In this document: positions 2,860 through 38,607 of the stretch, piece by piece
How positions within the stretch are numbered: position 1 is the stretch's first letter
How the letters are laid out: each line of letters starts with the position of its first letter
Assembly: GCA_963836185.1 (NCBI GenBank)
Contig: CAWIIQ010000001.1
Location: forward strand, 224,001 to 288,000
From: Candidatus Krumholzibacteriia bacterium
GTDB taxonomy: Bacteria; Krumholzibacteriota; Krumholzibacteriia; Krumholzibacteriales; Krumholzibacteriaceae
Length of the DNA: 64,000 nucleotides
Reading direction: 5' to 3'
The notes under the pieces: model-generated
The model's database searches: none
Seen by the model: only the letters and a program-made list of their open reading frames with translations
What the model was told of the DNA's origin: nothing
Position numbers and translations under genes: made by a program

Positions 2860-2966
2860 AGACATCGCTGCTCCGGATCAGGCCAAACACCGCTGGAAAA
2901 CCACACTGACAGTGCGGTATATTCTGCATGAGTCCCATTTCTGTACATGCACCCGATGGAGCACAC

Positions 2967-5900
2967 TTGAAATACCACAAAATCATACTCACAGCTCTTA
3001 ATACCGGCCGCCGCGTTATCCATGGCCTTTTCAGGAGCAGGGGCACAGGATGTTCCGCTGACAAAGCGGGTGATCCGCGAAAAGATCAGGGAAGGGATGA
3101 GTGTCCGGACACGGGAACTGGAGCGGGCCCGCGAAATGGGCCTTCCCGTTCGCGGCGACATGCCCGGAGGGGGCCTGTTCGAGCTCAAGACCCTGTCCAC
3201 CAGGGTGCCGACCTACTTTATCACTTTCAATGACGCGGCGGCACGCTCGACGAGGACCGACAGTGTCCAGGCCGTATATGGCGGGGCGCCGGGGTTCACG
3301 CTCGGCCTCTGGGACGGCGGCGCCGCGAGGGTGACCCACCAGGAGCTGAGCGGGAGGGCTGTCTGGGAGGACGATTTCAGTTACAGCACGCATCCCCATT
3401 CGACACATGTCGGTGCGACGATGATCGGAGCGGGGGTGGATCCCCAATCGAAGGGGATGTCATTCGAGGCGAACCTCAAATCGTACGAATGGTCGTTCGA
3501 CGATCTCGAAGCGGAGCTCGAGGCGCGGGACGGCCTTCTTCTATCCAATCACAGCTACGGCCATGCGAGGGGCTGGGTGGTGACCTCGTCGGGCACGATC
3601 TACTGGTACGGCGATGTGACGATCAGCGAGACGGAGGATTATCTCTTCGGATTCTACAGCGATGTCTCCCGAGACTGGGACGAGGTGACCAGCAGGAATC
3701 CTTATTACCTCCCGGTCACTTCTGCGGGCAATGACCGCAACGACCACGTTCCTTCCGGCGCGAGGCACTACGTACTGGAGATCCTCAGAGCGGGGGATGG
3801 GTCTCGGTCACCACTGTTCGCGATAACGATGGAGGTGAGCTCGGGTACGACTGCCTTCCCGACGGCCTGGGCATGGCGAAGAATACCCTCGTGATCGGCG
3901 CGGTCGATGATGTCGAGGAGTACCAGGGGCCGGAGGATATCGAGATGACGACCTTCAGCTCATGGGGACCGACCGACGACGGGCGGATCAAGCCCGATAT
4001 CTGCGGCAACGGCTACAGGCTCTACTCGGCGATCGACGGTTCCGATATCGCGTACGGGATATACAGCGGCACATCGATGGCGTCCCCGAATGTCTGCGGC
4101 TCTCTCGGGCTTCTTCAGGCCCGGTACGCGGAGATCCGCGGCGACTCGATGCTCGCTTCGACGGTCAAGGCGCTGGCGATCCATACGGCAAGGGAAGCGG
4201 GACCGCATCCCGGGCCCGACTACGGCTTCGGATGGGGGCTTCTCGATACCTGGGCCGCGTTCGAGCATATCGGATCCGATCCCGACGGCAGGATGGGAAG
4301 GATCGCGGAGATGACCCTGTACGACGGTATGCCTTTTGAACTCTACTACGAACCTGAAGAGGGCGCCGACAGGATGACGGTGACGATAGCGTGGAACGAC
4401 CCGGCGTCCGATATACCTGTGCCTGCGCTGAACGACAGGACCCCGCTCCTTGTCAATGATATCGATCTGAGGGTCGAAGGGGCCGGCGATGGAGCATACC
4501 CCGTGGATCCTCGATCCCGATGATCCTTCGGCCGCAGCCGGCAGGGGAGACAACTTCCGCGACAATGTCGAGCAGATCGTTATTGACGATCCCGCGCCCG
4601 GCACATATGTCGTGCGGATAAGTCACAAGGGGGTGCTCGAGGGCGGCTCGCAGCGCGTCTCGCTAATTGTGTCAGGCGCGAAACGCACCCGTACATGGCA
4701 TGTATTCGCCGACGGCTCGGGCGATGCCGAGACGATTGGCGAGGCGGTCTCGCTCGCCGATCCGGACGACCAGATATTCGTCTTCCCGGGCACATACTAC
4801 GAACATGACATCGTAATAGACAAGAATCTGAAGATCAGGGGTGTCGAAGGAGCAGGAGCCACCACGGTCGACGCACAGGGAGCGGGCAGATGTTTCTCTA
4901 TCGTCCTGCCGGATGTGACGGGGGCTGGAGAGATGAACACGCTCCGCTCCTTCGGTGCCGTTGAGATAGACGGGATCACGATGATGGGAGGCAGAGCGGG
5001 GGGCTCCGGCATCGAAGGCAGGGGAGGCGCGGTCTACTGCGACGGCGCGCGGACCGTTCTCTCGTCCTGCGTGATGACGGGCAACGGGGCGGCCGAAGGC
5101 GGCGCTGTCTACCTGAGGGAATCCAGGTCGTTCGTTTCAAATTGTGAAATATATGACAATTCGGCCGGAAGAGGGCGGGGGTCTCTTTCTTCTCCGTTCC
5201 GACGCGCTGGTGGAAGGAAGCACGATAGCGGCGAACGCCGCTGTGAGGGGAAGCGGGATGCTCCTCGAAAACTCCTCCCCCGATGTGACGCGCTGTACGC
5301 TGTCGCATAATGCCGTGGGGGCCGGTATATATGTGCGCGGCGGAGGAAGGCCGAGAGTCGCGGCTTCGGTAGTCTCGTTCGGAAGCGGAAGCGGGATATA
5401 CGCCGAAGGGGTGACGTCACATCCGTCGATAGTGTGCTGCGATGTCTACGGAAACGAAGATAGGGACTACGGCGGCTCGTTACACGACCAGACAGGTCTC
5501 CAGGGTAATATCTCGCAGGACCCCCTGTTCTGCGACCCGGAACATCTCGGATTCAGCGTGGGGGACGGATCTCCATGCCTGCCGAACAGGAACCTGTGCG
5601 TGACGCTGATCGGTGCTCATGGTGCGGGGTGCCATACCCTGACCGTTATCCGGGTCACTCCCGAGGGAACGGGCGACGCGGCGACGATCTCTGAAGCTAT
5701 GGAGGCGGCGGTGGCAGGCGACACGATCATGCTCGCCCCCGGTGTCTTCACGGGCCCTGGTAACAGGGACATCCTTTCGAGAGGATTCCCGATAGTCATC
5801 ACCTCCGAGGCAGGAGCGGGAGAGACTGTGATCGACTGCGGAGAGGGAGGCGACGCCTACTACGGATTCTATTTCGGCGGCGGCGAAGATACCTCGACAG

Positions 5901-7469
5901 TGCTCGAGGGAGTGACGATAACAGGAGCGGGCAAGGGGGCGATAGCCTTCAGCAACGGCTCGGATCCGCTCGTCCGGGACTGCCGTTTGACCGGCAACCA
6001 TGCACATGGGGGGCTGGCACGGCGGCGGGATCACCGTCGAGGACGGATCGGCCCCTGTCATCAGGCGATGCGTCATCTCCGGCAATACGGCCAGTCCGAA
6101 CGGCGGCGGGATATTTTGCAAGATATCAACGCCTGTCATCGAGGACTGCGAGATCACCGGCAACACGGCGACCGATTCGGGAGGAGGACTGGCATCGTTC
6201 AACTCATCCCATCCGGTATTGAGGCGGTGCCTGATCTCGGGTAACGCGGCCGGTCGAGGAATCCGGCGGCGGTGTCTACATCATCATGGGCGCCGCGACG
6301 GTACAGGACTGCGCGGTCATCGGACAATACGGCTGATTACGGTGGCGGCGGACTGTTCAGCGGGACCAACGCCACACTGACCGTCACCGGAACGGTCATT
6401 GCCGGAAACAGTTCGGTGAGCATAGGCGGGGGCGTTTACAGCGCTTCCGGTATGATGATGCTCGCGATGCACAGTCGTCGATAATTTCACAGAGTACTAC
6501 GGCGCCGGGATCGAGGTCTTCCAGGGGCCGAACAATCATATATACAACACGATCATCGCGTTCAACAGGCATGCGGAGGGGATCTTCACGATATCGGGCG
6601 ATATCGACATCGTCTGCTCCGACGTCTACGGGAACGAGGGCGGTGATTACGGCGGCGCAACGGCCGACATGACCGGCCCGCTCAATCTCTCGGTCGACCC
6701 TCTCTTCTGCGACGCGGCGGGAGGCGACTATTATCTCAATGCCGACTCGCCCGTTCTGACGCTTCCGGACGTTTCATGCATCGATATGATGGGAGCGCTG
6801 GGCGTCCGGTGCGGCGACTCGGCAGACCTGCTCTTCTCATCGGTGGTGTTCGATACGATGTCTGCCGATGCGGGCCGGACGATACATGTCGCCGCGGTCG
6901 TACGTAACGGCGGCCCGGCGGGAGCGGGTCCGTTCCGCGTCGATTACTACAGTGATCTCGATGATTCCCCGGCACCGGGAACAGAGGGAGATCTCTTCGC
7001 GGCGGTCGATACGCTGGCGTCAGGGGACTCGTCATCGGTAACTTTCGACATCTCGAGCCCTGTGTCGGGGATGTGGCGCTCCTGGCTGATGATAGACCCG
7101 GACGGGCAGGTGCCCGAATACAACCTCGACAACAATACAGCCGGGCCTTACCCGGTCACATGGACGGCTCCGGGAGGGGTCGTGCCCGACCAGTCAAAGC
7201 TCAGCTCGGTAAGTCCCAACCCGTTCAGTGATGAGACGGAGATCGTCTACGACCTCGACCGTTACACGGCCGCTGAACTCTCCATCTTCGATCTCGCCGG
7301 CAGGCGCCTGGCGATATGGAATCTTCCTCCGGCCGGACCGGGACGATTCATAATCACCTGGAAGGGAACAACCGGCGACGGGAGGCAGGTATCCTCCGGG
7401 GTATATTTCCTGAGATTCAAGGTTGACGGGGTTGTAGAGCAGGGCGAGAAGATCATCAGGATCAGGTAA
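2967..7469 (+). CDS. Secreted S8 subtilase + two parallel beta-helix modules + CARDB-like domain + FlgD-Ig/T9SS-like C-terminal domain (several frameshifts)
   Basis: Catalytic motifs GLWDGG, HSTHVGATM and SGTSMASP, plus SSWGPTDDGRIKPD. Repeated GxGDAxTIxEA starts and GGG/NxA beta-helix repeats follow, then DPLFCD, VPEYNLDNN and PNPFS...SSGVYFLRF...KIIRIR. Pieces lie in ORFs 3022, 3873, 4489, 5144, 6000, 6272 and 6669. Confidence 0.8.
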
Positions 7470-12599: not shown

Positions 12600-13343
12600 T
12601 CAGCCGCCCTTGATAGTTATATACCGGACGATGAGCTCGGGCCTCAGCCCGACGGCGGCGGTTTCTCTCATATATACGTGCAGGAACGCGGCCTCTCCCC
12701 CTGTCCGTGGTGTCAGAAGCACTCCGTGGTTTCTCGGCGGTATCTTTATCCAGTTCTCGACCCTGGCCGGATCGAGCTCGAATGTGACAGAGGTGTCGGC
12801 TTTTATTTCTTTCGAATCCATCAGGTCGAGGTGGTCTCCACCTTCGGCCGTCCATTGAGAGACCCCGTCATCGACGTAGAGCCAGGATACACCTTCGCCT
12901 AAGTACCCTTCTTCCCATGAGCCGGTGTAAGTTGCGGGAACCGTCGCTTCCCAGGCGTCGAGCCAGATCGTGCGGTTGGTATCCTCGGGTTCGAAGTGCA
13001 GCGTCATGTGGGCGCTGGCTACACTCCCGCAGTCCGTTATGGAGGTGAGATCGAACCTGACGAGCAGCCTGCGCTCGTAAAGCGAGCCCCCGATCTCAGC
13101 CACGCCGAGTGTATCTAAAGAGGCCGTCCCGTTGTTGCTCTCCCTCATGGTCCAGCTTGCGCCGTCTCTTATTACGGCGTCCCGTGTGCCGAGATAGGAG
13201 GGAAGCGGCTCCGCGCCGTCCCTGAATATCACTGTTGTCGTGTCTGAATCTCCCGGAGGTCCTGTATTGCTGCTGCATCCGATCCCCGCCAGGACAACGG
13301 CGGCTACGGCGGCGAAAAGTATGATACGGGTCCTTGTCTTCAT
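12600..13343 (-). CDS. DNRLRE-domain lipoprotein
   Basis: Lipobox GIGC. RDAVIRD, NNG, RRLLVRFDLTSI, NHGVLL and RPELIVRY match the DNRLRE pattern. Start uncertain (13343-13352). Confidence 0.7.
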   Translation of the reverse strand: MKTRTRIILFAAVAAVVLAGIGCSSNTGPPGDSDTTTVIFRDGAEPLPSYLGTRDAVIRDGASWTMRESNNGTASLDTLGVAEIGGSLYERRLLVRFDLTSITDCGSVASAHMTLHFEPEDTNRTIWLDAWEATVPATYTGSWEEGYLGEGVSWLYVDDGVSQWTAEGGDHLDLMDSKEIKADTSVTFELDPARVENWIKIPPRNHGVLLTPRTGGEAAFLHVYMRETAAVGLRPELIVRYITIKGG

Positions 13344-13389
13344 TATCATCATGTTATGAATATTAGAGGAAATCCACGGAACACAATAG

Positions 13390-14802
13390 CTATTTGTCTC
13401 GCGGGGCCCGAAAATCACCAGCGTCGATGCCGTGCTTCTTCATCAGGTCATGCAGAGTGGGGCGGCTCACACCCAGCTCGCCGGCCGATGCCGATACGTT
13501 TCCGGATGTGCGAAGAAGGGTGGCGATCACCATTCCCTTTTCGAGCCTCTCTTTTGCCTCTTTGAGTGACATCTCGCCCGCGATGTCTATTGGAGGGCTC
13601 TCGGCGGGCGTATTTTCTCCAGCCTCATCCTCGAACGGGATATCGAGGTCGGAGGGCTGGATCAGGTTGGCGGCGGCCATTATGACGCCGCGCTTGACCC
13701 TGTTGTCCAGTTCCCTGACATTGCCCGGCCAGCGGTACGAGTGGATCGCCTCGATGGCGGACCTGCTGTAGCCTTTCAGGCCGCGTGAGAACTCCGAGCT
13801 GTAACGGTGCAGGAGTCTCGTGGCCAGCAGAAGGATGTCGTCGCCCCTGTCGCGCAGGGGAGGCATCGAGATCCTGACTGTGTTGATACGGTAAAAGAGG
13901 TCCTCGCGGAATTTCTTCTCCGCGATCATTTCCTCGAGATCGCTGTTTGTCGCCGCGATGACGCGAACATCGACCTGGATCGGCGCTCCGCCTCCGACCC
14001 TCTCGACGACCTGGTCCTGGAGGAATCTCAGAAGCTTTACCTGCAGGGCCTGCGGGAGCTCGCCGATCTCATCGAGGAAGAGGGTGCCTCCATCGGCGGT
14101 TTCGAACTTCCCGGCCTTTGTCGCGTGCGCCCCCGTGAAACTTCCCTTTTCATGGCCGAAAAGTTCGCTCTCGAGAAGGTTCTCCGGGATCGCCCCGCAG
14201 TTGATCGGGATGAAGGGGCCGCCATTGCGGGTCGACTTGTTGTGGAGAGCCCGGGCGATCAGTTCCTTTCCCGTACCGCTCTCACCCGTTATAAGGACCG
14301 AGACGCCGGTCGGCGCGATGCGGCGTACCGACTCGAAGATGCCGAGCATCGGTTCTGACATCCCGATGACTCCCTCGAACTCGTGACCCCGGGCATATCC
14401 TTCCTTCAGTTTCGCGAGTTCTCTCTCGAGGGACCGTATATAGAAAGCCCTTTGAAGGATCACCCTGAGCTCCTCGACATCTACCGGCTTGGCGTAGAAA
14501 TCGAGCGCTCCGGTCTCGATCGACTTCAGTGCATTCTCCATATCGTCGTGCCCGGTGATCATAACGACCTTGATCTGCGGGTCTATGCTCAGCGCTGACT
14601 CGAGCACGTCGAATCCCTCGAGTTCGGACGCGTCGTCTGTCAGGGAGAGGTCGAGGATCATGACCGAAGGTGAATGCTGCCTGACAGCGGACAATGCCTC
14701 ATCGGCGGACACGGCAGTAATGATGTCATAGTCGTTTTTGAAGGCCCACCTGAGCTGCTTGAGGATCGTCTCTTCATCATCGACTATTAGAAGTCTGTCC
14801 AT
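13390..14802 (-). CDS. prsR: PEP-CTERM-box sigma-54-dependent response regulator
   Basis: Receiver domain (LDLSL, ITGHDD), AAA+ (GESGTGKE, ESELFGHEKGSFTGA, WPGNVREL) and HTH GVSRPTLHDLMKK; lies in the exosortase locus. Confidence 0.9.
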   Translation of the reverse strand: MDRLLIVDDEETILKQLRWAFKNDYDIITAVSADEALSAVRQHSPSVMILDLSLTDDASELEGFDVLESALSIDPQIKVVMITGHDDMENALKSIETGALDFYAKPVDVEELRVILQRAFYIRSLERELAKLKEGYARGHEFEGVIGMSEPMLGIFESVRRIAPTGVSVLITGESGTGKELIARALHNKSTRNGGPFIPINCGAIPENLLESELFGHEKGSFTGAHATKAGKFETADGGTLFLDEIGELPQALQVKLLRFLQDQVVERVGGGAPIQVDVRVIAATNSDLEEMIAEKKFREDLFYRINTVRISMPPLRDRGDDILLLATRLLHRYSSEFSRGLKGYSRSAIEAIHSYRWPGNVRELDNRVKRGVIMAAANLIQPSDLDIPFEDEAGENTPAESPPIDIAGEMSLKEAKERLEKGMVIATLLRTSGNVSASAGELGVSRPTLHDLMKKHGIDAGDFRAPRDK

Positions 14803-14832
14803 ATTCAAACCTGACCGTACCTTTCCGGGCAG

Positions 14833-16932
14833 CTATTCGCCGGCTGGCATCTCTGCCTTTACTGTCGCTCCTCCTCCGGGGAGGCTGGAGACCGAGATAG
14901 CTCCGCCATGTGCCTCGGCAAGCGATTTACACAGGACCAGTCCTACTCCCAGGCCGTTTTTCTTCGTGCTCATGAACGGCCGGAACAGGCCGTTCTCCAG
15001 GAACTCCCTGTCGAACCCGGGCCCGTCGTCGCTGACGATGACCGTCAGCGTATCTCTGTGGCGGGCGATCCTGACTTCGATCGTCCCGCCTTCGGCCACA
15101 GCCTCGATCGAGTTGATCACCAGGTTCTCCAGGATGCGGGACAGGGCCGCCGGATCGATAAAAACCGGCACGGAGCCTTCCGATTCGAGGCTGATCTCGA
15201 CGTCCTTTCTCGATGCCATCTGCCTGAGAGAGGCTATCTTTTCTTTTGCCGTTGAAGCTGCATCGATCGACGTCCGCGAGATCGAGGTGGGAGCCTTGTG
15301 CGCGTTAAGCGAAGCGATCAGCCGCCGCATCTTCTGCACCGACCTCTCGACCGTATCGATCGCGTCTTCCTGAAATTCCCTGTCGTGGATATTATCCCTG
15401 GCGTTTTCGGCAGTCAAGGAGAGCATGCCGACGGTATTTTTAAGGTCGTGGATCACGAAGGAGGCGAACCTGTTGAAAGATTCGAGCTGTTTTGATTCGA
15501 GGTGCCGTTCCTCCATCAGAAGGTTCTCAAGGGCGAGCGCGCCCTGGTCTGTTATCGTGGTGAGAAAATCACGGTCTTCTTCCGACCAGGGCCTTCCGAA
15601 ATCTTTTCGCCCGAGAGCGATGAATCCCCTCGCCTCTCCTCCTATGGTCAGGAATGATACGGTCCTTACCCAGGGGTGAAGCTCCATAGTCCGGGTGGTT
15701 ACTTTCGCATTCCGGTCCGGCCCGTGAGCGAGCCGCCTGGGCCCCGGTATCATGATCAGGGGCGAGCCGGCGTAAAGTTCCATCATGCCTCCCGAAGCGG
15801 CGGCTGCGAGCTCTTCCTTCTCCAGTCCGTAATCGGCCAATTTGTTCCCGCTGATGCCGACGTAGATAAAGCCTTTCTTGACCATCATCGTCTCGCAGAG
15901 AGAGCTTATCGTGTTGGATAGAAGATCCTCGATCGTCGAGCTGGAAGTCATCATGCGCGCGTAATGGCGCCACTCACGCCTGTAGTTGTAGAGGCCCGGC
16001 CTGAAGTTCTCGTTGATGAATACCCGCAGATGGCGTCTTGCCTTCCCCGATATCAGGATGGCGAGGAGGATGAATATCGCAAAGACCGATGCGACCATCG
16101 TGCCGAACCTCTCATACGGCATCCCGATAAGATCAGAGGCCCATGTTATCAGCGCGAAGGCGAGAAGATAGAGGCCCGCGATGACGACACTGACGACCGA
16201 AGAGGCTTTCCCTTTCTCGGGCATCGTCCTTATCTCGAATATGGGGTATCTCCATCCCGTGTAGAAGATCGTGATGCAGAAGATGATCACGCCGAGAGCT
16301 CCTATCGAAATGAAGTAGTCGTCCACTTCGGAGAGCATCACCAGCCTGCTCATGATTATGAAGTTCATGGTCGAGGCAAGGATCGTCCCGAGCAGCGGAT
16401 ATTTCAGGGTTACCTTCGCCGGGACATTGGCGGCCCTGTACGTGTTTTCAAAAGAATGAAGAAGCAGCACGTTGACGGCGAGAGCCAGCAGCGCGAGGAG
16501 CTGGCCGGTGGATGTGACCCCGATCCTCCAGAGTCCGCCTCCCTCGGCGAGCTGGAACCGGTTGACGATCAACTCGACAGGAAGGAGCAGCGCCGTCGCT
16601 GCGAGCAGCGTTCCGAGCGTGATCATGCCGGGGAGCCAGCGTCTCAGCCTGTTTGCCGCGTCGTTCCGGCCGAAAAACGCGAAGAACGGGATTGCGAGAG
16701 CTGGAGAGAAGATGATCAGGGCGAGATGGATCTGGAGCCGGCTCATTACCTCTTCCGCCGACCTGGAAACGAGGGCGAATGTCAGGGCTGCCATCGAGGC
16801 AAAGATGCTCAGAGCCCAGAGGATGAAGAGCGTCTTCTGCGTGTTCCTCTTCCCGGACGCGATGTGTATCACCGCGAGCAGCAGCATCAGGGCGGATGAT
16901 GCCCCGGCCAGGATGGCTGTTATGGTGATCAT
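14833..16932 (-). CDS. prsK: PEP-CTERM system histidine kinase
   Basis: Multi-TM N-terminus, YNYRREW, GAF-like region, FNRFASFVIHDLKN H-box, NLVINS, DDGPG and LFRPFMSTKKNGLGVGL. ATG 16932 overlaps the TPR gene stop (ATGA). Confidence 0.9.
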   Translation of the reverse strand: MITITAILAGASSALMLLLAVIHIASGKRNTQKTLFILWALSIFASMAALTFALVSRSAEEVMSRLQIHLALIIFSPALAIPFFAFFGRNDAANRLRRWLPGMITLGTLLAATALLLPVELIVNRFQLAEGGGLWRIGVTSTGQLLALLALAVNVLLLHSFENTYRAANVPAKVTLKYPLLGTILASTMNFIIMSRLVMLSEVDDYFISIGALGVIIFCITIFYTGWRYPIFEIRTMPEKGKASSVVSVVIAGLYLLAFALITWASDLIGMPYERFGTMVASVFAIFILLAILISGKARRHLRVFINENFRPGLYNYRREWRHYARMMTSSSTIEDLLSNTISSLCETMMVKKGFIYVGISGNKLADYGLEKEELAAAASGGMMELYAGSPLIMIPGPRRLAHGPDRNAKVTTRTMELHPWVRTVSFLTIGGEARGFIALGRKDFGRPWSEEDRDFLTTITDQGALALENLLMEERHLESKQLESFNRFASFVIHDLKNTVGMLSLTAENARDNIHDREFQEDAIDTVERSVQKMRRLIASLNAHKAPTSISRTSIDAASTAKEKIASLRQMASRKDVEISLESEGSVPVFIDPAALSRILENLVINSIEAVAEGGTIEVRIARHRDTLTVIVSDDGPGFDREFLENGLFRPFMSTKKNGLGVGLVLCKSLAEAHGGAISVSSLPGGGATVKAEMPAGE

Positions 16933-18431
16933 CTCGTGCCTCTGATCCTCTCGACCTGTTTCAGGGCTTCCGCAGCCAGGGCCGTGCCTGGATACTTCGA
17001 TGCGCAGCTCTGGAGTATTTCTGCGGCCCGTTCCGGGTCGTCGAGCTCGGTCTCGTATATCGCCGCCGCCATCAAGGCAGTTTTCCTTGAACTTGTGGTA
17101 CTGAGGGTACCTGCCCGGCAGCGCGAGAAGGCGAGAGGCGGCTTCTTCCCAGCGTTCCTGCTCGACGAGGGTCCGTACATGGTATTCTTCAGCGACTATA
17201 CGGATCATCTCGGAGTATTGCGTCGACGAGAGATGGTCATAATGCTCTGCCGCTCTTTCATACGCCGCCTCGAGCGCCTCCGCTTCACCTGTCGTCCTGT
17301 AGTGCGCCGCGATGCGAAGCGGCGCCTCCATTCCCTGTATCGTTGTCGGGAAGCTGGTGTATACCGATTTGTAGTGAAGGGATGCCTCGACCCAGTTGCC
17401 CCTGCTCTCCTCGAGAATAGCGAGCTGCCAACGGGCCTCGACCGCTTCCGGGCCTGGACCTCCGTATTCCTCCAGTACCCTGTTGTACGCCGCCGCCGCG
17501 GCGTCGTATTTTTTATCTTCGAGGAGGATGTTTCCCTTCATCAGAAGGGCCGTAGGAGCTTCCTTCGACCGGGGATGCGCGGTGACGATCTTGTCGAAGA
17601 CCGATATGGCTCTTTCCCGGTCCCCGAATCCGTCGAGCTCGATGCGGGCTTCGAGGAACAGAAGGCTCGGGATGTCGGCCTGGTCACCGTAGATCTTCCT
17701 CATATCCCGGATCGTTTCTCTCGCTTCTGTCCATTTCTCGGAAAGAAGGTATGTGCTGACGAGGTTGTACCTTGCTTCCTTCTTTAAATCATCCGGCGCG
17801 TTCGAGCAGGATTATATGACTGTAGATCTTTTCGGCCTCGCCGAGCCATTTATTCGCGCAGCCGGAGTCGGCCGTGCTCTGCAGATCTCCGCGATGCGGA
17901 TCGGCGTCAGAAGATATCGCCTGTTGAGCGGGCAGTATCGACGATCCGGTCGCCGGAGAGATATTCTTCGTGAAATTTGGTGAAGAGTCCAGGGCCCGTC
18001 GGTGTCGCCGCTCTCGCGCGAGATGAACGATGCCGACCACAGGGCGTTCGCCCTGGCCGCCGGCACGGTTCCCGCGATCTCGTACGCGTAAAGGAAATCT
18101 TTCCGCGCGTCTTCGAACATCGATGCCCTGAACTCGAGTTCCGCCAGTTCCATCTGCGCCGTGACGACGATGAGATTCATTCCCTCGATGCTTTTCGATG
18201 TCGCCGGAGTAATCGCTCGATTATCTTCCTGTACGCTGCCAGTGTCCTGTCGAGAAAATCCATGTTGAGGGTCGGGAAGGTGAGCTCCGAGGCATGTCTT
18301 CGTGCGTCGAAGAGGGCCTTTTCCGCCTCGTACGTCGGTGATTTGTCATCTCCGCCGCATCCGGAACAGATTATCAGGCCGGCGGCCAGCAGTGACAGTG
18401 GCAGCGATCGTCAGGATGGAATGATCTTCAT
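16929..18431 (-). CDS. TPR-repeat lipoprotein (PrsT-like position; frameshifted)
   Basis: GGAG RBS + ATG 18431, signal ending LIICSGC, and TPR-like helices (ALLMKGNILL...AAAAYNRVLEEY; AEILQSCASKYPGT) split over several frames. Confidence 0.7.
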
Positions 18432-18448
18432 CTTTGCTCCTTCCGGCG

Positions 18449-19362
18449 TCATCCCGCGCCGCCAAGATCGAGGCTTGTGCCGGCCGGCCGGTCGACCTTT
18501 CTCGCGAGGAAGATCACCGTTGACGAGGCGGTTATCAGGTATGTCGAGACAGTTCCATCACTCTCGACGCGATATGGTTGTGGATCATGAAATCAGGGGA
18601 GAGTTGAAGCGCTATCATCTCGGCTTTCATGTCGAGCAGGATGATCGGGACGGTCAGCAGAAATGGCACGGCTACGATGAGCAGCGTCTTGGTGAATGTC
18701 CGCAGCGAGAGGGATATCCCCGAGGCCAGCGCGGCGGCGGCAGAAAAACCGTCGATCATGATGAAAGGGATGGCGTAGACGAACAGTGACTGGATCATCA
18801 GGCCCAGCGCTATCCCGCCTCCGAGGGCCGCGTACCTCGCCGGTCCATCCATGCCGGCGGAGAGCCAGGAGCCGAGAAGGACCACGCCGTAAACGGCTGC
18901 CGATGAGATGATCGAGACACCCAGCAGGTGTGGATAGCGTGCGGCCGGCAGCGGAGAAGGCGCGTGGAATGGAAAGTCTGCCCTTCCGCATCGCTCTCGC
19001 TACGAGGTATACAGTCGCGCCGTGAAACAGCGACTTGAGGAAGACCTCGAGGACCATCTCGATCCGTCCAAGTATGGGCTGGAGCAGCAGCAGGTGCGCC
19101 GGATAGTGGCCCAGTGTCTCTGGGGTGACGCCGCCTACGGGCAGCGCCCAGAGGCGGGCGAGCGGCCCTGAGTTTCCGACAAGATAAATCGTCAGCAGGA
19201 GCATCTGCAGAAGGAAGTAGACCAGGTAGGGAGCGGCGACCCCCGGCGATCGATCAGAAGGGTCAGCGAGGCATGGAACGCCTGAAATGCGGATGAGATG
19301 CTTCTCGCCAGGCTCCGCCGTTCCGCGGCGTCGGCGCTGCCCTTGATTATTACTTTTGACAT
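18449..19362 (-). CDS. Polytopic membrane protein of unknown function (frameshifted)
   Basis: Hydrophobic segments in ORFs 18593..19204 and 18535..18885 (HYPAHLLLL, YAIPFIMIDG). ATG 19362 follows GGAG. Confidence 0.6.
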
Positions 19363-20039
19363 GCCTGTATCAGCTCCCGTCGTCGTTTTTCCGTGGCTGT
19401 AAGCGCCTCGATGCACGTGCGGCGAGATATCTTCTATGAATCCGACGAGGCCGGCCCTGACGGCCTCATCCCCACCAGCCGGGATCAGGGTCGAAAATCT
19501 GATGAACGAGGCCGCCTGGGACCGGGCAAGCAGCGCGCTCGTCATCTGGTGCCATTTCAGCGCGAACTCGTTCGGTATCGTCATGCCCCGCATGCTGAAC
19601 CAGTAGATGACGAGCTGCCTGTTGTCGCCGTCGGATATGATCAGCTTCCGGGCCGGCTGAGTCCGTTCCCCCGATATCGAGGTCGATCGATCCCTCGGAG
19701 AGTATATCCCAGCCCGCTCCGGGGTAACAATGTTTCGGTGAGTGAATCTGCGAATTCTCCTGCTGGTCGGCGAAGTACCCGATAAAGACATCTATCGAGT
19801 TGCCTCCCAGGTCGACATACGAACGGGCGAGGGTCATGATCGGCGCCCAGGACCCTCAGGGATTCGGGAGAGATATATTCATCCCGGGCCGTGTATCCGC
19901 TGAGGGTGCGCGGTATCGATTCCAGGTCGGGCGGTTCCGGCTGCGGCACGGTCCTCAGTCTCAGCGACCAGGTATACGCGCAGAGCACGGCCAGGATGAC
20001 GACGACCGTTATGATTTTTTTCGTCGATACTGAGTCCAT
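19360..20039 (-). CDS. epsI: EpsI family exosortase-associated protein (frameshifted; 3' end approximate)
   Basis: N-terminal TM, IPRTLSGY, FIGYFADQ, IHSPKHCYPGAGW, LVIYWF and FIRFS motifs. Confidence 0.8.
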
Positions 20040-20885
20040 CTCAATATTCCCGCGCAAAGGAGCAGCATCAGAAAACCGGCCATGAATACTATGATCCCCG
20101 ATGCTTCGTGCAGCGGGCCGTCCGCGAATCCCGGGCCGATAAAGAACGCGCCCAGGGCGGTGACGACCAGCCTGACGGTGTTTGCCGCGATGGCGGCGGG
20201 CACCGAGAGGAGGACGAGGATAAATTTCCTTGCCTTTCGACATATCGGAGAAGAACGCGAATACAACGGCAAGTGTGAACATCGTCATCAGGGAGCGAAG
20301 TCCGCTGCAGGCGGCTACCACCTCGAGGGTGTAGCCGGGGAGCAGCAGGATATTCCCTTTGCGGATCACGCTTACCCTCATGGCTGTCAGACATCGCTGC
20401 GCTGAGTTTCGCGCTCAGCATCTGCATGGGAAAAGTGATCTTGAAGTAGATGATATATGGAAGGGGGACCATCAGGAGAAGGAGCAGCAGGGGAGGTCCG
20501 GCGACCCTGGTGAAGTCCCAGGCCCATGAGGAAGAGGACCGCTCCGAGGATCATCAGGGGCAGCGAGATCCTCATCGCGAAATTCTCGGCCGCCGCGGTT
20601 CCCGTGATCAGCAGGCCTGCCGCGGCGAAGATCAGCAGGAGCCCCGGGGCATCTCTCCGCCTCCGCTGCCTGTCTCCCGGAGTGCGTCGCGCCTTTTCCA
20701 GAGCAACAGGGCCGACACGAGCGGGATGAGGATGCCGTGGCGGTAGTTCGAGTCATCGAGCCATTGCCGTACCAGAGAGGAGACGACAGGCGCATACAGC
20801 AGCCAGCGAGCAGGACGAGCGCTGCGATCGTCAATATCGTGTTGGTCCGGGCCGTACGGCCCTGTTTTTCGGGCGGCACCGGCAA
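20009..20885 (-). CDS. epsH: Exosortase (EpsH/XrtA-like; frameshifted)
   Basis: HGILIP, MVPLP, catalytic VVAACSGLRS, ANTVR and LHEASG in successive frames. GGAGGA RBS precedes TTG/GTG. Confidence 0.85.
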
Positions 20886-20943
20886 AAGGGCTCCTCCCAG
20901 TGATTCCAGGATGAAACCTTTATATATCTTCAAGCGGATTATA

Positions 20944-20958
20944 ACAAGAGTTATGCCA
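20944..20958 (-). promoter_or_regulatory. Sigma-54-like promoter for the exosortase operon
   Basis: Minus strand TGGCAT-AACTC-TTGT, about 60 nt upstream of the exosortase start. Confidence 0.6.
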
Positions 20959-21018
20959 CTTGGCGGGATGTGAAAGGACGGGCAAGGGATGTCAGTGGCA
21001 GGTGCTGGGAGAGGAGAT

Positions 21019-21057
21019 AAAAAAAGGGCGGGTGCCCGATGGATCACACCCGCCTTT
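21019..21057 (-). terminator. Intrinsic terminator after the PEP-CTERM gene
   Basis: AAAGGCGGGTG...CACCCGCCCTTTTTTT on the minus strand. Confidence 0.8.
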
Positions 21058-21078
21058 GAACAAGGGTTATACCCCTGA

Positions 21079-21798
21079 CTATCGCTTTTTTCTTCTCAGA
21101 AGAGGCGCGATCCCGAGCAGGCCGAGGCCGAGGAGACTCAGCGTGGAAGGCTCGGGAGTAGCGTAGTAGGACGAGTCATGAAACTGTGAGTTAGTAATGG
21201 TGTTGCCCTGGCGTCGACTCCGATGGCGTCGAAATGTGCCCAGTCGAAGCCGCGGACGACGACATTCATCGTGAGTCTCGTCGCCCCAGCCGGGAGTGCC
21301 GATCTGGCCGAATCCGTAGTGCATCGCACCGGTCTGGTCATTGTCGATCCGTCCGATATTGAGGAAGCTGTAACTTTCTGCCAGGGAGGGACCGTTGAAA
21401 AGAATCGCCGGGCTGGGGCTTGTGCCGGTCGGGATCGAGTTCATCCACTTCTCGAACGCGGAGATCTCGACGCCGTTGATATAGACCGATCCCATCTGGT
21501 CCCTGGGGACGCTCATCGCGAGGTAGCAGTCCATGTAGTCGTATGAAGGAGTAGCGTACGTAGGGCGGTCCGAAGTGAATGCAGTGGTGCTGTTCACTTC
21601 CTCACCCCAGTAGCCGACGACCTTGAGGTCGAAGTTGTTCGAGCTCGATACCCAGGTCATATAATCCAGCCCCGAATGGTAGACCGAGTACTGTGAGTCC
21701 ACGATGTACGTCTGGAGCCTTGGAACCGCTGCCGCAGGAACCGAAAGCGCGAGAGCCATCAGGACCGCCAGGCTTATGAATATCGATCTCTTCATCAT
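21079..21798 (-). CDS. PEP-CTERM sorted surface protein, choice-of-anchor N-like domain (two compensating frameshifts near 21210-21275)
   Basis: Signal peptide; VPRLQTYI...WVSSS; the alternative frame supplies FDWAHFDAIG. C-terminus HDSSYYATPEPSTLSLLGLGLLGIAPLLRRKKR. Confidence 0.9.
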   Translation of the reverse strand: MMKRSIFISLAVLMALALSVPAAAVPRLQTYIVDSQYSVYHSGLDYMTWVSSSNNFDLKVVGYWGEEVNSTTAFTSDRPTYATPSYDYMDCYLAMSVPRDQMGSVYINGVEISAFEKWMNSIPTGTSPSPAILFNGPSLAESYSFLNIGRIDNDQTGAMHYGFGQIGTPGWGDETHDECRRPRLRLGTFRRHRSRRQGNTITNSQFHDSSYYATPEPSTLSLLGLGLLGIAPLLRRKKR

Positions 21799-21868
21799 CT
21801 TGCTCCTTCTGCAAGTGTCGGAATTCTTTATAATCCCGTAATTATTCGTATCTTCACCGGTATTATCC

Positions 21869-21883
21869 GCAAGCGCCGTGCCA
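21869..21883 (-). promoter_or_regulatory. Sigma-54 promoter of the PEP-CTERM gene
   Basis: Perfect TGGCAC-GGCGC-TTGC on the minus strand. Confidence 0.85.
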
Positions 21884-21963
21884 TTTCATCTCATTATGCA
21901 ACTTGGTATATTGCAATATGTTATGAGTTGAAAATACTGGGTGAAATCCCCCTGCCCAAATGG

Positions 21964-21979
21964 TGTAAGATATTCCGAC
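21964..21979. promoter_or_regulatory. Candidate PrsR enhancer (PEP-CTERM box)
   Basis: TGTAAGATATTCCGAC lies about 80 bp upstream of the -24 element with an AT-rich IHF-like spacer. It resembles the TGTAA-N-CCGACA-type box recalled for PEP-CTERM genes. Confidence 0.6.
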
Positions 21980-22037
21980 GGTCGTTTCCTGCGCTGTGCT
22001 GTTCAAGGTGTTGCCGATTGAGGAGATATACATGCAG

Positions 22038-22070
22038 AAAAAACGGAGGCGGGGAGTGAGCCCCGCCTCC
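22038..22070 (-). terminator. Intrinsic terminator
   Basis: GGAGGCGGGG-ctcact-CCCCGCCTCC-GTTTTTT on the minus strand. Confidence 0.85.
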
Positions 22071-34477: not shown

Positions 34478-36832
34478 CTACCTGAGGAGTACGGCCTTCC
34501 TGCTGACCATCCTGCCCTCGGCCCGCAGCAGGTAGAAGTAGACCCCGCTCGCGAGGCCCGATGCGTTCCATGCGATCTTGTGCGTGCCGGCTTCCATTCT
34601 GCCCGATGCCAGCACGGCGACCTCGCGGCCGGCGATATCGTAGGCTCGCAGATCTACATGGCCCTCGCTGCCGAGTGTGAAGCGGATCGTCGTCGAAGGA
34701 TTGAATGGATTGGGGGAGTTCTGGAAGAGGGCGAGGCCGGGAGCGCGGTCCCCGCTGCCGGAATAATCGGTCACCGCGATCCTTGACCTGTAGACCGACT
34801 TGTCGTGTCCGGTGATCGTGAGGTCAAGCGAATCGATCATCCCCGGAATAGTGTCGGCGAGGCGTATCGTCATAAACCCGTCGGTCAGTGCGGTCCCCGT
34901 GCCGAAGCACGTGCCGTCCCCGTAAAGGGAACCGATGGAGCCGGGTGTGTCGGTCTCGACCGTAAAACCGAGGGCGCCGCGGTCAATCCCAGGTTCATGG
35001 TCCGCCGCGATCAGGGATGGCTGACCGGTCCATACGTCCATCGCGGGATCGCCGAGAACGTTCAGCGCATAGAAGCACCAGCGGTGGGCTCCCGGTTCGT
35101 ATTCGTCGGGAAGGTCGATGAAAGGAACGGTCTCGTCTTTCGAGCGCGCGTGAGCGTCGCCGATGGTCGTGATCCCCTCGGTGAATATCGCGTCGAAGAA
35201 CTCCCGCTGAAAATGATGCGACGGGCCATTGGTCGTTCCCTCGGTGAACCATCCGTAGCGAGAGTTGCCGACATAAGCCGAGGCGCATGTCGAGATGGAT
35301 ACCATCTCCTCGGCTATGCAGTCGTTGAAGTCGAATCCGCCCGCATTGCACCCGTACGAGTTCACCACGGGGAAGTTCGCCGAGATGCCGTCATTGGTCA
35401 GGTTCGCTGTCGTGACATTGCTGACATTCATCAGCATCACGTAGCCGTAACTCGAGTGCCCCGCGTGGCAGACGAGACTGGGGCCGTCGCTGATACCGGC
35501 ATAGACGTCGTCGACCGTGTACGAGATGTCCCGCTCGTAGAGCTTGACGATATCGAACGCCGGCGGTATCCCGGTCGTCTCGAATCCGTGGATGTCCCAG
35601 GTTCCGATCAGCTGGTCGATCTCGTTTCCTCCATATGTAAGCGGAACGCTGTAGAGGTGCTCGCCAAGCATCAGGGCGTCGTCGCACCGGGTCACTACGG
35701 GGGATTCCTGGTACATCACGATCTTGTTAATTATCGCCGCCGCTTCACCGGCGCCATCGAAGGAGATCCTGCCGACAGCGACCTCGGAATAGAAATCCTC
35801 TTCGCCCGGTTCGCCCCACAGGGTATCGCCGTCCGCGTTCCAGTCGCCGTCGAGCGCCGCGTAGTACAGGTCGGCCGGGATGCCTTCGTCCTCGTAGAGG
35901 GTGGATGAATGAACGGCGCAGTAGAGCCCGCGATGAGGGAGGTCGTACGGCCCGTTGTCGCTGTCGCCGGCCAGCAGTACGTGTGTGACTCCCTCTTCTA
36001 TATAGGCGTCGAGGATCGCCATGCGTATCTCGTCGGGCAGATCGAGCCCTGCGTAGGCGAGGTCGATGCTCTCGACGGTCATGATCTCCGTGCGCATGCC
36101 CCGCCTGTTGTAGAAGTCCCTGAGCGGAGCCATGTCGGTCACGTAATGTTCGCGGGTTATGATGAGGTATTCATACCCTTCACCTGCCGCGGGGAACTCT
36201 TCGGCGGCGGGCAGGGCGCCTGGATTATCGATAAGGGATGCGAGCCTCCCGATAGTCGCCGCATCGCGGCGCAGCATCCTGGACGCGTCCGCCGGTCCGG
36301 CCTGGACCCTGGTCTCGACAGTGATCTCGATCTCGGACCAGTATCCCGCCTCTCCGGTAGCCGGGTTGTGCCCGACCGGAGAGAAGGCCCCGGTAGCGAT
36401 CGCGTGCCCCCGCAGATATCTCGTCCTCAGACGCGGGGAAGGGGGGTGGATCCAGCTGTCCCGGGCGTATACGTCCGCCTTGTAGAGGAAGCGTTTTTCC
36501 GGGCGTTCGCTTCCCGGCACGGGATCCTGCCTCGGGTGCAGTCGCACTGCCTGCGGTATGACCTTCCAGCCTCGTCTCTCGATCCGGAGCGAAACAGCTT
36601 CTTCACCGGGCGGCAGGAGCACAGCGGCTCCCCTGAACGGGAAGCTCGGCTCGCCCGCTTTTCCTGCCTGCACGGTGGATGGAAATACGATCCGGGAAAA
36701 TCCGCCATCGAGACTTTCGACCGAGGGGGCGTCGAAAATATACTTGACTGATATATCGGCAGAAGACGATCCGGTGGGGAAAGCGATAAGAACGGCTGCC
36801 AGGAGCAGAAGGATGCAAAATCGGTCATACAT
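34478..36832 (-). CDS. C25 (gingipain-like) cysteine peptidase with propeptide and FlgD-Ig/T9SS-like CTD
   Basis: YLIIT, HVLLAGD, DLYYAALDGDWN, EVAVGRI, His-Cys dyad CHAGHS / SYGCNAG and LNVLGDP; C-terminal QNSPNPFNP...SGVYF...RKAVLLR. Confidence 0.9.
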   Translation of the reverse strand: MYDRFCILLLLAAVLIAFPTGSSSADISVKYIFDAPSVESLDGGFSRIVFPSTVQAGKAGEPSFPFRGAAVLLPPGEEAVSLRIERRGWKVIPQAVRLHPRQDPVPGSERPEKRFLYKADVYARDSWIHPPSPRLRTRYLRGHAIATGAFSPVGHNPATGEAGYWSEIEITVETRVQAGPADASRMLRRDAATIGRLASLIDNPGALPAAEEFPAAGEGYEYLIITREHYVTDMAPLRDFYNRRGMRTEIMTVESIDLAYAGLDLPDEIRMAILDAYIEEGVTHVLLAGDSDNGPYDLPHRGLYCAVHSSTLYEDEGIPADLYYAALDGDWNADGDTLWGEPGEEDFYSEVAVGRISFDGAGEAAAIINKIVMYQESPVVTRCDDALMLGEHLYSVPLTYGGNEIDQLIGTWDIHGFETTGIPPAFDIVKLYERDISYTVDDVYAGISDGPSLVCHAGHSSYGYVMLMNVSNVTTANLTNDGISANFPVVNSYGCNAGGFDFNDCIAEEMVSISTCASAYVGNSRYGWFTEGTTNGPSHHFQREFFDAIFTEGITTIGDAHARSKDETVPFIDLPDEYEPGAHRWCFYALNVLGDPAMDVWTGQPSLIAADHEPGIDRGALGFTVETDTPGSIGSLYGDGTCFGTGTALTDGFMTIRLADTIPGMIDSLDLTITGHDKSVYRSRIAVTDYSGSGDRAPGLALFQNSPNPFNPSTTIRFTLGSEGHVDLRAYDIAGREVAVLASGRMEAGTHKIAWNASGLASGVYFYLLRAEGRMVSRKAVLLR

Positions 36833-37005
36833 GCAACTCATTATAACATAGTGTGGTACCGGGCGAAAGAACAGAAAAGCACTTTACAGACAGCAATATC
36901 TCTCTATATATTTATACAGCGGATGAGCAAAACTCCACCGGCATCCACAATCTGACATCCATGGGGCTGCACCTCTGCTGAAACTCGAATTGGGGGGGAA
37001 TCGCG

Positions 37006-38418
37006 ATGTATCGATCCATTCTTGTCATCTTTCTGGTATTACTTATCTCTTCCGGCGCGTATGCGCACGAGGGGATGATAGCGCTTGTCGCCGACCCGGC
37101 GATGCTCGACTGCGACGACGGCATCGAGACAGGCACCCTGGTAAACCTCTATCTCTATTATATGCGAGGTGACGGGCCTTACAACATAGGCACTGCCCAG
37201 TTCAAGCTCCTGTGCTCATCGAGCGAGGTACTTGTCCTTGATCCCGACTGGACTCCCGGCATGTTGGGTTTTGGGGATGTGACCGAAGGCATCGCCGTGT
37301 TCGATACAGATAACAGGGTAGAGGAGTACTGCGGGGCCGATCAGGTCTTCTACGGGACCGTTCCGATATTCAATCTCTCGGACGACGATACATTTACAGT
37401 CAGCGTTACCAGCCCGTGCTTCGATGGTATTACTCCGCTCGACATCGCTATAGCGGCATGCGATGAATCCCGTACGGAAATCGCGGTGGGGGGAAACAGC
37501 TACACCTTCAACGGAAAGTGCAAAAAGAAGGATGACTCGCCGATAGTCCTGGGCGCCGACGCGGCAGATCAGCGGGTCGTCACCGTCCTGTTCGATGAGG
37601 AGATCGACTATGTTTCAGCCGGCGAGGTATCACGTTATCTGCTGATCAGGTCGGGCGAGCCGGAAGCGGCTATCGAGCTGAGTGGAGCGGACCTGATGGA
37701 TGACAATCGCACGGTACAGCTGCAGCTCGGAGAGGACCTTGTCGAGCTGGGGGATTACTCGATCTTCATCGACGGTGTGGCCGATCTCGACGGGAACCCG
37801 GTGATACCCGGAGAGCCGTACAGCTACGCCCTGTTCACCGCTCCGCAGGTAGCGACGCTGCTGCAGTGTTTCTCCTCATCGGTGGAGGGCCGCGCGATCA
37901 GCGTCAGATGGGAGCTTTCCGAATATGAAACGGACGACCGGTTCATCGTGACCCGCAGCGTCGCGGCGACCGGCACTTCGCGTGAGCTGCGCGATATCGA
38001 GATCGCCCGCGAGGAGCTTTCGTTCCGGTTTGTCGACGTGGATGTCATGGCGGGCGAGGAATATATCTACCGCGTGGATGTCGTCTCAGCTGGTGAAAGG
38101 AAGACCCTGTTCGCTACGGGGGCCGTAGTCGTACCGCTCTCGCCGGCCGCCCTCTATCAGAACACGCCCAATCCGTTCAACCCGAACACGACTATCAGGT
38201 TCTACCTGCCGGAAGCGGGGGACGTGAAGGTCCAGGTGTTTGATGTGGCGGGCCGGTCGATCAAGACGCTGGTAGACGGTGCGCGCGCGGGAGGGGAGCA
38301 TTCGGTCGACTGGAACGGGTCGACTGACATCGGCACGCAGGCCGCGACAGGCATCTATTTCTACGTGCTCGAATATGAAAAGAATTCGATAACGAGGAAG
38401 ATGGTTCTTCTGAGATAG
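37006..38418 (+). CDS. Exported Ig-like domain protein with FlgD-Ig/T9SS-like CTD
   Basis: Signal peptide, Cys-containing N-domain, VTVLFDEEID..GVADLDGN Ig-like domain, linker domain VATLLQ..YIYRVD and QNTPNPFNP...RKMVLLR. Confidence 0.8.
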   Translation: MYRSILVIFLVLLISSGAYAHEGMIALVADPAMLDCDDGIETGTLVNLYLYYMRGDGPYNIGTAQFKLLCSSSEVLVLDPDWTPGMLGFGDVTEGIAVFDTDNRVEEYCGADQVFYGTVPIFNLSDDDTFTVSVTSPCFDGITPLDIAIAACDESRTEIAVGGNSYTFNGKCKKKDDSPIVLGADAADQRVVTVLFDEEIDYVSAGEVSRYLLIRSGEPEAAIELSGADLMDDNRTVQLQLGEDLVELGDYSIFIDGVADLDGNPVIPGEPYSYALFTAPQVATLLQCFSSSVEGRAISVRWELSEYETDDRFIVTRSVAATGTSRELRDIEIAREELSFRFVDVDVMAGEEYIYRVDVVSAGERKTLFATGAVVVPLSPAALYQNTPNPFNPNTTIRFYLPEAGDVKVQVFDVAGRSIKTLVDGARAGGEHSVDWNGSTDIGTQAATGIYFYVLEYEKNSITRKMVLLR

Positions 38419-38460
38419 GAAAATATCAGAGAAGGATGACGGTCGCTGCGACTGTCAATA

Positions 38461-38505
38461 GGAGGGAACGGGCACTGGCTCTCGCCGGGTGTCCGTTTCC
38501 TTTTT
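38461..38505 (+). terminator. Intrinsic terminator
   Basis: GGGAACGGGCACTGG...CCGGGTGTCCGTTTCCTTTTT. Confidence 0.7.
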
Positions 38506-38512
38506 CAGGGCG

Positions 38513-38607
38513 GAATAAAGCGGGGAGGCGAGTCCTGCGCACGCCTCCCCTATCCTTTGAGGTTACCCGGAAGGTCCCAACCTTCACCTCTCAGGATTTC
38601 CGTTACT
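38513..38607 (-). ncRNA. Candidate ~95-nt small RNA of unknown family
   Basis: TTGAGC-N17-TATAAT promoter (38641-38613), a long hairpin ATCCT/GAGGT/GAAGG...CCTTC/ACCTC/AGGAT, then a GGGGAGGCG/CGCCTCCCC hairpin + GCTTTATT. No ORF with an RBS. Confidence 0.5.

Follow-up and report, generated by a model that had tools for sequence, protein, structure and literature searches.

A compact cassette in Krumholzibacteriota that probably joins a PrsK/PrsR switch to the sorting of a single PEP-CTERM protein

The window analyzed here is the whole 64,000-nt stretch at positions 224001-288000 of contig C1 in the Krumholzibacteriota genome G000 (3.5 Mb, six contigs), and its subject is a PEP-CTERM/exosortase cassette at 12600-21979. 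The cassette covers 9.4 kb and contains eight co-oriented genes, all on the minus strand. In the direction of transcription, it consists of a 17-nt box, a sigma-54 site, the gene for the PEP-CTERM protein to be sorted (the cargo), a terminator, a second sigma-54 site, and the genes for an exosortase, EpsI, a membrane protein, a tetratricopeptide repeat (TPR) lipoprotein, PrsK, PrsR and a DNRLRE-like protein. With a probability of about 70%, this locus is a self-contained switch-plus-sorting unit for one PEP-CTERM cargo. Direct observations are which genes are present and in what order, their family scores, the layout of box, promoter and terminator, the single cargo with its single exosortase, the conservation of the cassette across the phylum, and the link between membrane protein and exosortase in a second phylum. 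The features are given below in the order of transcription.

22045..22070, minus strand: terminator-like hairpin of the upstream gene, at the 5' border of the cassette; a 10-pair stem with nine G-C pairs, then a T run
21963..21979, minus strand: 17-nt box GTCGGAATATCTTACAC ("PEP-CTERM box", motif 1), likely the PrsR enhancer site; its core is invariant in 17 aligned upstream regions
21869..21883, minus strand: putative sigma-54 -24/-12 promoter TGGCACGGCGCTTGC, a pattern match 70 nt 5' of the cargo ATG
21815..21824, minus strand: conserved element ATTCCGACAC of the 5' untranslated region, reverse-complementary to the box's left half
21079..21798, minus strand: cargo with signal peptide, choice-of-anchor N domain and PEP-CTERM tail (TPEPSTLSLLGLGLLGIAPLLRRKKR); contains out-of-frame patches
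21020..21054, minus strand: terminator-like hairpin and U7 after the cargo gene (-18.1 kcal/mol, z -2.46, a stability equalled by 2 of 200 shuffles)
20944..20958, minus strand: second sigma-54-like promoter TGGCATAACTCTTGT, 59 nt 5' of the exosortase start
20012..20885, minus strand: XrtA-like exosortase of ~290 aa, in six frame pieces (five frame changes), with Cys, Arg and His motifs present
~19375..20039, minus strand: separate EpsI, overlapping the exosortase end by 28 nt; two frame changes and probably a third near the end
18449..19362, minus strand: polytopic membrane protein of ~300 aa and no named family, an exosortase-linked accessory; three frame changes
~16929..18431, minus strand: TPR lipoprotein of ~500 aa; two frame changes, plus a compensated N-terminal pair; the gene overlaps the PrsK start at its 3' end
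14833..16932, minus strand: PrsK sensor histidine kinase, 699 aa, intact (TIGR02916, 308 against a cut-off of 300)
13390..14808, minus strand: PrsR sigma-54-dependent response regulator, 472 aa, intact (TIGR02915, 571.2 against 502.6), with receiver, Sigma54_activat and HTH_8 domains
12600..13349, minus strand: probable lipoprotein with a sub-threshold DNRLRE domain (23.9 against 34), intact

The first-pass annotation had described a co-oriented run of eight genes, and all eight are present on the minus strand. Its coordinates for the membrane protein gene (18449-19362) matched exactly, and the sigma-54 promoters that it placed before the cargo and the exosortase lie at 21883-21869 and 20958-20944. 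Two corrections to it arise. The stretch from cargo to TPR gene is heavily frameshifted in the window. The DNRLRE lipoprotein it listed exists as a gene, with a domain score below the threshold.

The cargo was scored on the choice_anch_N model NF038141 (cut-off 40 bits) and on the PEP-CTERM models TIGR02595 (16) and PF07589 (20.7). It reached 42.4 bits on the first, on which the same-genus ortholog reached 62.3 and an Omnitrophota member 141.9. The PEP-CTERM models gave 20.1 and 26.8 bits, and a further PEP-CTERM score was 24.4 bits. The choice-of-anchor N domain was found in none of five exosortase-negative relatives and in four of four positive controls. In the ESM Atlas, the neighbours of the cargo were PEP-CTERM proteins of ~235 aa from Krumholzibacteriota, Planctomycetota and Thermodesulfobacteriota.

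Two C-terminal sorting systems side by side had been proposed in the first-pass annotation, together with a genome-wide count of PEP-CTERM proteins. That count gave a single match over cut-off among the 41 candidates scored, the second match having just 13.4 bits. All five exosortase matches of the genome fall in the cassette locus, which corresponds to one exosortase in this genome. For Por_Secre_tail, the tail of type IX secretion systems (T9SS), 105 of 106 genome matches were over cut-off; FlgD_ig had 111 matches, and the genome also carries SprA and rpoN. One PEP-CTERM protein with its exosortase thus stands beside about 105 T9SS tails, which bears out the proposal. A PEP-CTERM system beside a T9SS is not unusual in the Fibrobacterota-Chlorobiota-Bacteroidota (FCB) group, as with XrtF in Bacteroidota. 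Among 34 genomes from genus to class level, PEP-CTERM matches numbered one in 22, two in three, three in one and none in eight. Some relatives (L063, G014, G016 and G017) hold a second PEP-CTERM or cargo copy outside the cassette.

The cargo was modelled as an Ig-like sandwich, for which Foldseek ranked sortase-assembled pilins highest (E 4e-4 to 1e-2). Together with the dedication of one cargo to one enzyme, this would suit the role of a pilin-like subunit, assembled into a fibre by the exosortase in the way that Gram-positive pilins are by sortases. However, the TM-scores of these matches were just 0.2-0.3, the model has a mean pLDDT of 72.8, and many unrelated proteins resemble Ig-like folds. 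The mature domain also has no invariant lysine; K58 varies, and only K237 in the tail is invariant. Fibre assembly is therefore a very improbable role for the cargo.

Both regulators were identified by their equivalog models. PrsK passed TIGR02916 narrowly (308 and 307.6 against 300) and is 79% identical to its same-genus ortholog, and PrsR reached 571.2 bits on TIGR02915 (cut-off 502.6). The sigma-54 pattern TGGCAY-N5-TTGY occurs at three sites in the window against 0.12 expected, and none of the shuffles reached three; two of the sites precede the cargo and the exosortase. Among relatives, the pattern lies ~87 nt upstream of the cargo in 22 of 36 and upstream of the exosortase in 13 of 22. 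When 17 cargo upstream regions were aligned, an invariant core GTCG..A....T.ACA was found within the 17-nt box, followed by TGGCAY-N5-TTGC ~70-87 nt before the ATG. Between the sigma-54 promoter and the ATG of the cargo stands the element ATTCCGACAC, whose CGACA is invariant or nearly so. The combination of box and sigma-54 site occurs once in the 3.5-Mb genome, in which the degenerate box occurs three times and the sigma-54 pattern 39 times.

As described in the text of Haft 2006 (PMC1569441), the 17-nt motif 1 has the 3' end TTTACA; the description covers Proteobacteria only. The same text gives a spacer of 62.8 +/- 10.6 nt (range 32-92) and places the end of the sigma-54 motif on average 71 nt before the start. 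Upstream of the cargo, the layout of motif 1 followed by a sigma-54 site agrees with this text description, with a spacer of 79 nt between box and sigma-54 site and 70 nt from the sigma-54 site to the start.

The exosortase was present in 33 of 41 related genomes. Fifteen loci were fetched, of which three at class level were partial; in all 12 loci at the level of genus, family and order, the gene order cargo-exosortase-EpsI-membrane protein-TPR-PrsK-PrsR is kept, and the DNRLRE-like gene is present in 10. A second set of loci was found with the cargo alignment and contained 79 loci, 40 of them close. The taxon names of the close loci comprised 18 beginning with Krumholzibacter, four with Latescibacter, two UBP1 and one "Patescibacteria group"; the rest carried none, and no name was proteobacterial. 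Among the cargo loci L036-L074, the exosortase adjoins the cargo in 36 of 39. Two of the three exceptions end less than 1 kb from the cargo gene, and the third is an additional cargo copy, from a metagenome-assembled genome that also has the cassette. Where a locus reached prsR, the order was kept in 27 of 27, with the DNRLRE-like gene in 16. Both the conserved gene order across relatives and the non-proteobacterial placement, raised as points to check in the first-pass annotation, were confirmed by these loci (12 of 12 and 27 of 27 for cargo-to-PrsR order; 18 Krumholzibacter names and no proteobacterial one among the 40).

No exopolysaccharide (EPS) genes were found within ~10 kb on either side of the cassette. 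The flanks contain genes for MscS, an MFS transporter, DUF5916, glutamine synthetase, ABC transporters and peptidases, and the nearest priming sugar transferases are at 1.70-1.77 Mb of contig C1, ~1.5 Mb away. The literature search returned no paper joining an exosortase with Krumholzibacteriota, and none of the matches listed paired PEP-CTERM with Latescibacter, Omnitrophota or Krumholzibacter.

The exosortase subtype was placed by NCBIfam hidden Markov model (HMM) scores, which stand in for a tree. The cut-offs were 208 bits for XrtA (TIGR03109), 425 for XrtW (NF038142), 400 for XrtD (TIGR04152), 105.55 for the general 8TM_EpsH model (TIGR02602) and 42.8 for EpsI (TIGR02914). The pieces of the window exosortase scored at most 44.4 bits each on TIGR02602, because of the frame changes. 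The intact same-genus exosortase (L018, 288 aa) scored 195.8 on XrtW, 196 on XrtD and 187.3 on XrtA, all under cut-off, and passed the general model alone (178.9). The exosortases of 13 further relatives gave 168.5-195.9 on XrtA, 168.7-207.9 on XrtW and 175-201.3 on XrtD. By these HMM scores, none of the 14 intact relatives reached a named subtype; the first-pass annotation had named an enzyme inside a described subtype with the same accessory genes as a refuting outcome. The XrtW cut-off was passed in none of the 41 related genomes. Cys191, Arg236 and His257 are invariant in 13 exosortase sequences.

Both here and in relatives, EpsI has a gene of its own that overlaps the exosortase gene. Its pieces in the window scored 53.9 and 45.0 bits, and the L018 ortholog scored 105.6. 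A fusion of exosortase and EpsI through a poly-A frameshift was considered and rejected, as the exosortase ends where its orthologs do and EpsI has its own ATG at 20039.

The membrane protein had no Pfam or NCBIfam match, with Pfam searched to E <= 0.1. Its structural model is confident and all-helical (pLDDT 83, pTM 0.81), and Foldseek returned nothing from the PDB at E <= 0.001, with CysZ at just TM 0.51. In the ESM Atlas it lies near DUF7847/GPDPase_memb-like proteins (feature score 0.95, TM 0.57/0.75), again with no Pfam match. It is present in the same 33 of 41 related genomes as the exosortase and absent from the same eight. The number of proteins found by a profile search of 1.84 billion representatives was 614 at E <= 0.001 and fell to 303 at E <= 1e-10 and to 29 at E <= 1e-30; among the 150 matches listed, most were ~265-310 aa and a few were shorter. 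These results point to a new exosortase-linked family.

The TPR protein was assessed through its L018 ortholog (514 aa), which has a lipobox-like ...MICPGCG. Although it occupies the usual position of PrsT, it scored 29.2 bits on TIGR02917 (cut-off 312.2) and is not a PrsT equivalog; no PrsT over cut-off was found in the genome, the best match being 114.1. The first-pass annotation had described a variant with a short TPR protein, an extra membrane component and no adjacent EPS genes, and this description is upheld by the PrsT score and by the ~10 kb of flanks. The DNRLRE-like gene remained below the NF033679 cut-off of 34 both in the window (23.9) and in its ortholog (29.9).

A counterpart of the cassette was found in Omnitrophota (L076 and L078). 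It shares PrsK (368 against 300), PrsR (569 against 503), a choice-of-anchor N cargo (141.9 against 40), a homolog of the membrane protein, a 503-aa TPR protein and a separate EpsI, and its exosortase is likewise under all subtype cut-offs. It differs in a changed gene order, and its block includes a short priming sugar transferase; a further PEP-CTERM gene is also present. This transferase (L076:11028-11921 and L078:8435-9334, 298-300 aa) lies between the cargo and the membrane protein gene and matches only the C-terminal half of TIGR03025, at 283 and 281 bits against 295.55.

The homology of the membrane protein to its Omnitrophota counterpart had an hhalign probability of 99.3 (E 2e-20). 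In 81 genomes of the Omnitrophota phylum, it was found in 10, all among the 20 that are exosortase-positive and none among the 61 exosortase-negative ones, although such presence and absence counts overstate the statistical weight because related genomes are not independent samples. The two genes are on one contig within ~13 kb in nine of the 10.

The membrane protein and the TPR lipoprotein are predicted to be obligatory helpers, either in sorting or in signal input, and the DNRLRE-like lipoprotein a frequent but dispensable rider. It is possible, though rather doubtful, that the two helpers form a sensory complex with PrsK on the signal-input side and do not assist the exosortase. As far as described in the text of Haft 2006 (PMC1569441), the phyletic profile of PrsT follows PrsK, PrsR and the DNA motif rather than EpsH. 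The overlap of the TPR gene with the PrsK start fits such a complex, as does G035, in which the membrane protein gene has PrsK at a distance of 2 kb and the exosortase on another contig. The Omnitrophota arrangement argues the other way, as the membrane protein and TPR genes there adjoin exosortase and EpsI, and PrsK and PrsR are on the far side, beyond the cargo. So does G036, in which an exosortase and a weak membrane-protein match are found without PrsK.

The counterparts in the two phyla also raise the tentative suggestion, which has the odds somewhat against it, of an undescribed exosortase subtype common to Krumholzibacteriota and Omnitrophota. It would have two fixed partners (the unnamed ~300-aa membrane family, with ~300 clusters in 1.8 billion representatives, and the short TPR lipoprotein), a single Ig-fold cargo, and the PEP-CTERM box with its PrsK/PrsR switch. 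If so, the box and the switch would be far older and wider than the proteobacterial description suggests. With one cargo, one enzyme and one switch, it would then be the smallest natural exosortase system for finding the acceptor.

The reading frames of the sorting half require separate consideration. Mapping by blastx against intact same-genus orthologs gave ~15 single-base frame changes between 16.9 and 21.4 kb; PrsK, PrsR and the DNRLRE-like gene, 4.3 kb together, are free of them. They are distributed as five in the exosortase, two and a probable third near the end in EpsI, three in the membrane protein gene, and two with a compensated N-terminal pair in the TPR gene. In the cargo, residues ~176-197 are out of frame with respect to 12 relatives, with indels at 21371 and 21380/1. 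Since cargo, exosortase, EpsI, membrane protein and TPR gene are all partly out of frame, the locus as written would be non-functional.

These five genes may be true pseudogenes in this strain, with PrsK, PrsR and the DNRLRE-like gene left intact; this is unlikely, though the restriction of the changes to the sorting half speaks for it. The indel sites are not homopolymers, and a shortage of long open reading frames (ORFs) is not genome-wide, as 15 of 3481 4-kb genome windows (11 regions) are equally poor in them. The absence of the whole cassette from eight of 41 related genomes indicates that loss occurs. A further point for decay is that the start frame of the TPR gene has as its codon 7 a TGA (18411-18413, minus strand), which is placed inside the compensated shift pair because relatives read on there in the shifted frame. 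Several other properties do not fit decay. Identity between the frame pieces and same-genus orthologs is 54-86%, much the same as for the intact neighbours, large deletions are absent, and several shifts form compensating pairs 10-70 nt apart.

Contigs of two public runs (X1 and X2; 0.09 and 0.05 of sampled words) give patchy coverage of the stretch. Relative to the window, a base is missing from them at 17073, 18937/18940, 19249 and 19251, 20233/20238, 20390 and 21371, and they have an extra base at 21380/1; these sites coincide with the frame junctions. In seven junction regions the contigs do not have the extra base, a point against decay. They differ from the window by 95 substitutions in total. 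Among the 40 listed, 34 were scorable, of which 19 were synonymous and 15 were not, with 20 of 34 at codon position 3; this pattern suggests constraint. Elsewhere in the window, frame changes cluster only at 2956-6460, in another surface-protein gene, which fits poor consensus in strain-variable stretches. A single shift was found near 59.8 kb, in a comparison with 56 ORFs from 70 kb of the same-genus genome, and the remaining matched genes of the window each align in a single frame. The frame changes are most likely consensus errors in a strain-variable stretch, favoured ~3 to 1 over real decay. The functional argument accordingly rests on the intact orthologs.

The broken frames, the non-homopolymer indels, the localized ORF shortage and the early TGA of the TPR gene thus weigh against a working switch-plus-sorting unit, and further observations weigh in the same direction. 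The margin of PrsK over its cut-off is narrow (308 against 300), and several relatives are under it, at 272-296 bits. The strict sigma-54 pattern is absent before the cargo in 14 of 36 relatives and before the exosortase in nine of 22. The modelled fold of the membrane protein yields no function, and G036 combines an exosortase and a weak membrane-protein match with the lack of PrsK. The DNRLRE-like gene has only a sub-threshold domain match and is lacking in two of 12 and 11 of 27 loci, at least five of those 11 being ended by a contig edge. The steps of the mechanism are drawn from knowledge of the families.

In the proposed working of the unit, PrsK would sense an envelope signal and phosphorylate PrsR, as members of its family do. 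PrsR would then bind the 17-nt box, which a 79-nt spacer separates from the -24 element downstream, and activate RpoN-dependent transcription, turning on both sigma-54 promoters. On family grounds, the cargo is expected to cross the membrane by Sec and to be held there by its C-terminal helix and RRKKR tail. The invariant Cys, Arg and His of the exosortase would cleave at or near the PEP motif, by likeness to its family. The enzyme is predicted to cut off the C-terminal anchor of the cargo and to hand the cargo to an acceptor in the envelope. By analogy with Aquincola PepA, the closest analogue that has been tested experimentally, the cargo may tie surface polysaccharide to the cell or mediate aggregation.

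Most known exosortase systems have dozens of cargoes and large EPS clusters. The acceptor of exosortase cargo has been an open question since 2006, and the cassette brings together in 9.4 kb a single cargo, a single enzyme, a dedicated switch and four candidate helpers. Many relatives have it intact, so that transfer and testing of the whole unit would be feasible. The cassette further extends the logic of PrsK/PrsR and the PEP-CTERM box beyond Proteobacteria.

Other parts of the window contain further genes of related types. In a second sigma-54 unit at 60164-63999 (minus strand), a HAMP histidine kinase is encoded at 62434-63999 and an NtrC-type regulator at 61034-62446. After them come the third sigma-54 site of the window, TGGCAC-N5-TTGT at 60889-60875 (minus strand), and then an outer-membrane beta-barrel gene (60164-60850). 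Genes with T9SS/FlgD_ig tails cluster at 34481-54152 and include a C25 peptidase (34481-36883), 36982-38415, an S8 subtilase (38739-41300) and an arylsulfotransferase (51516-54152). At 2956-7466 (plus strand), a secreted protein of ~1528 aa with S8 subtilase, beta-helix, CARDB and a T9SS tail (7209-7457) is split over at least four frames. Elsewhere in the genome, the SprA match G000:C2:331131-335548 spans two open frames (1275 and 751 aa) and may represent another frame change of the assembly.

The cassette was compared with known exosortase systems. With the XrtA/PrsKRT system, as described in the text of Haft 2006 (PMC1569441), it shares a PEP-CTERM cargo, an EpsH-family exosortase with invariant Cys, Arg and His (the conserved EpsH triad in that text), and EpsI. 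Further shared features are the two regulators PrsK and PrsR, each passing its equivalog cut-off, a 17-nt motif with the end TT(T)ACA that is followed by a sigma-54 site at the published spacings, and a cargo that forms a single-gene unit. A genome with a single PEP-CTERM gene has a precedent in Rhodospirillum rubrum, cited in the same text.

In contrast to that system, the XrtA cut-off is reached by none of the 14 intact exosortases (168-196 against 208), and a ~500-aa TPR lipoprotein replaces PrsT. An extra membrane protein of an unnamed family is present, EPS genes are not adjacent, everything lies in a single 9.4-kb block, and the host belongs to Krumholzibacteriota, not Proteobacteria.

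XrtW (NF038142) and XrtD (TIGR04152) were the top subtype models for the exosortase domain, at ~196 bits each. However, both are fusions with EpsI, and here EpsI is separate and overlapping; the summed scores come to 276 against 425 (195.8 + 80.5) for XrtW and 304 against 400 (196 + 107.6) for XrtD. The cargo of XrtD carries VPLPA-CTERM, and the cargo tail here is PEP-CTERM. The choice-of-anchor N model NF038141 neighbours XrtW NF038142 by accession, from which one might guess that the two were built together.

In Aquincola tertiaricarbonis, as far as described in PMC9850573, the RpoN-dependent pepA is followed by a terminator and then prsT, and pepA keeps EPS cell-bound. The cassette has the same succession of a putatively RpoN-dependent PEP-CTERM gene, a stem-loop terminator and a TPR gene. 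It differs in the cargo family (floc_PepA 29.7 against 80 here, in the tail only), and Aquincola has many PEP-CTERM genes and a large EPS cluster.

Taken together, the cassette is a compact one-cargo variant of the XrtA/PrsKR system and not a new kind of system, conserved across Krumholzibacteriota and found in a rearranged form in Omnitrophota.

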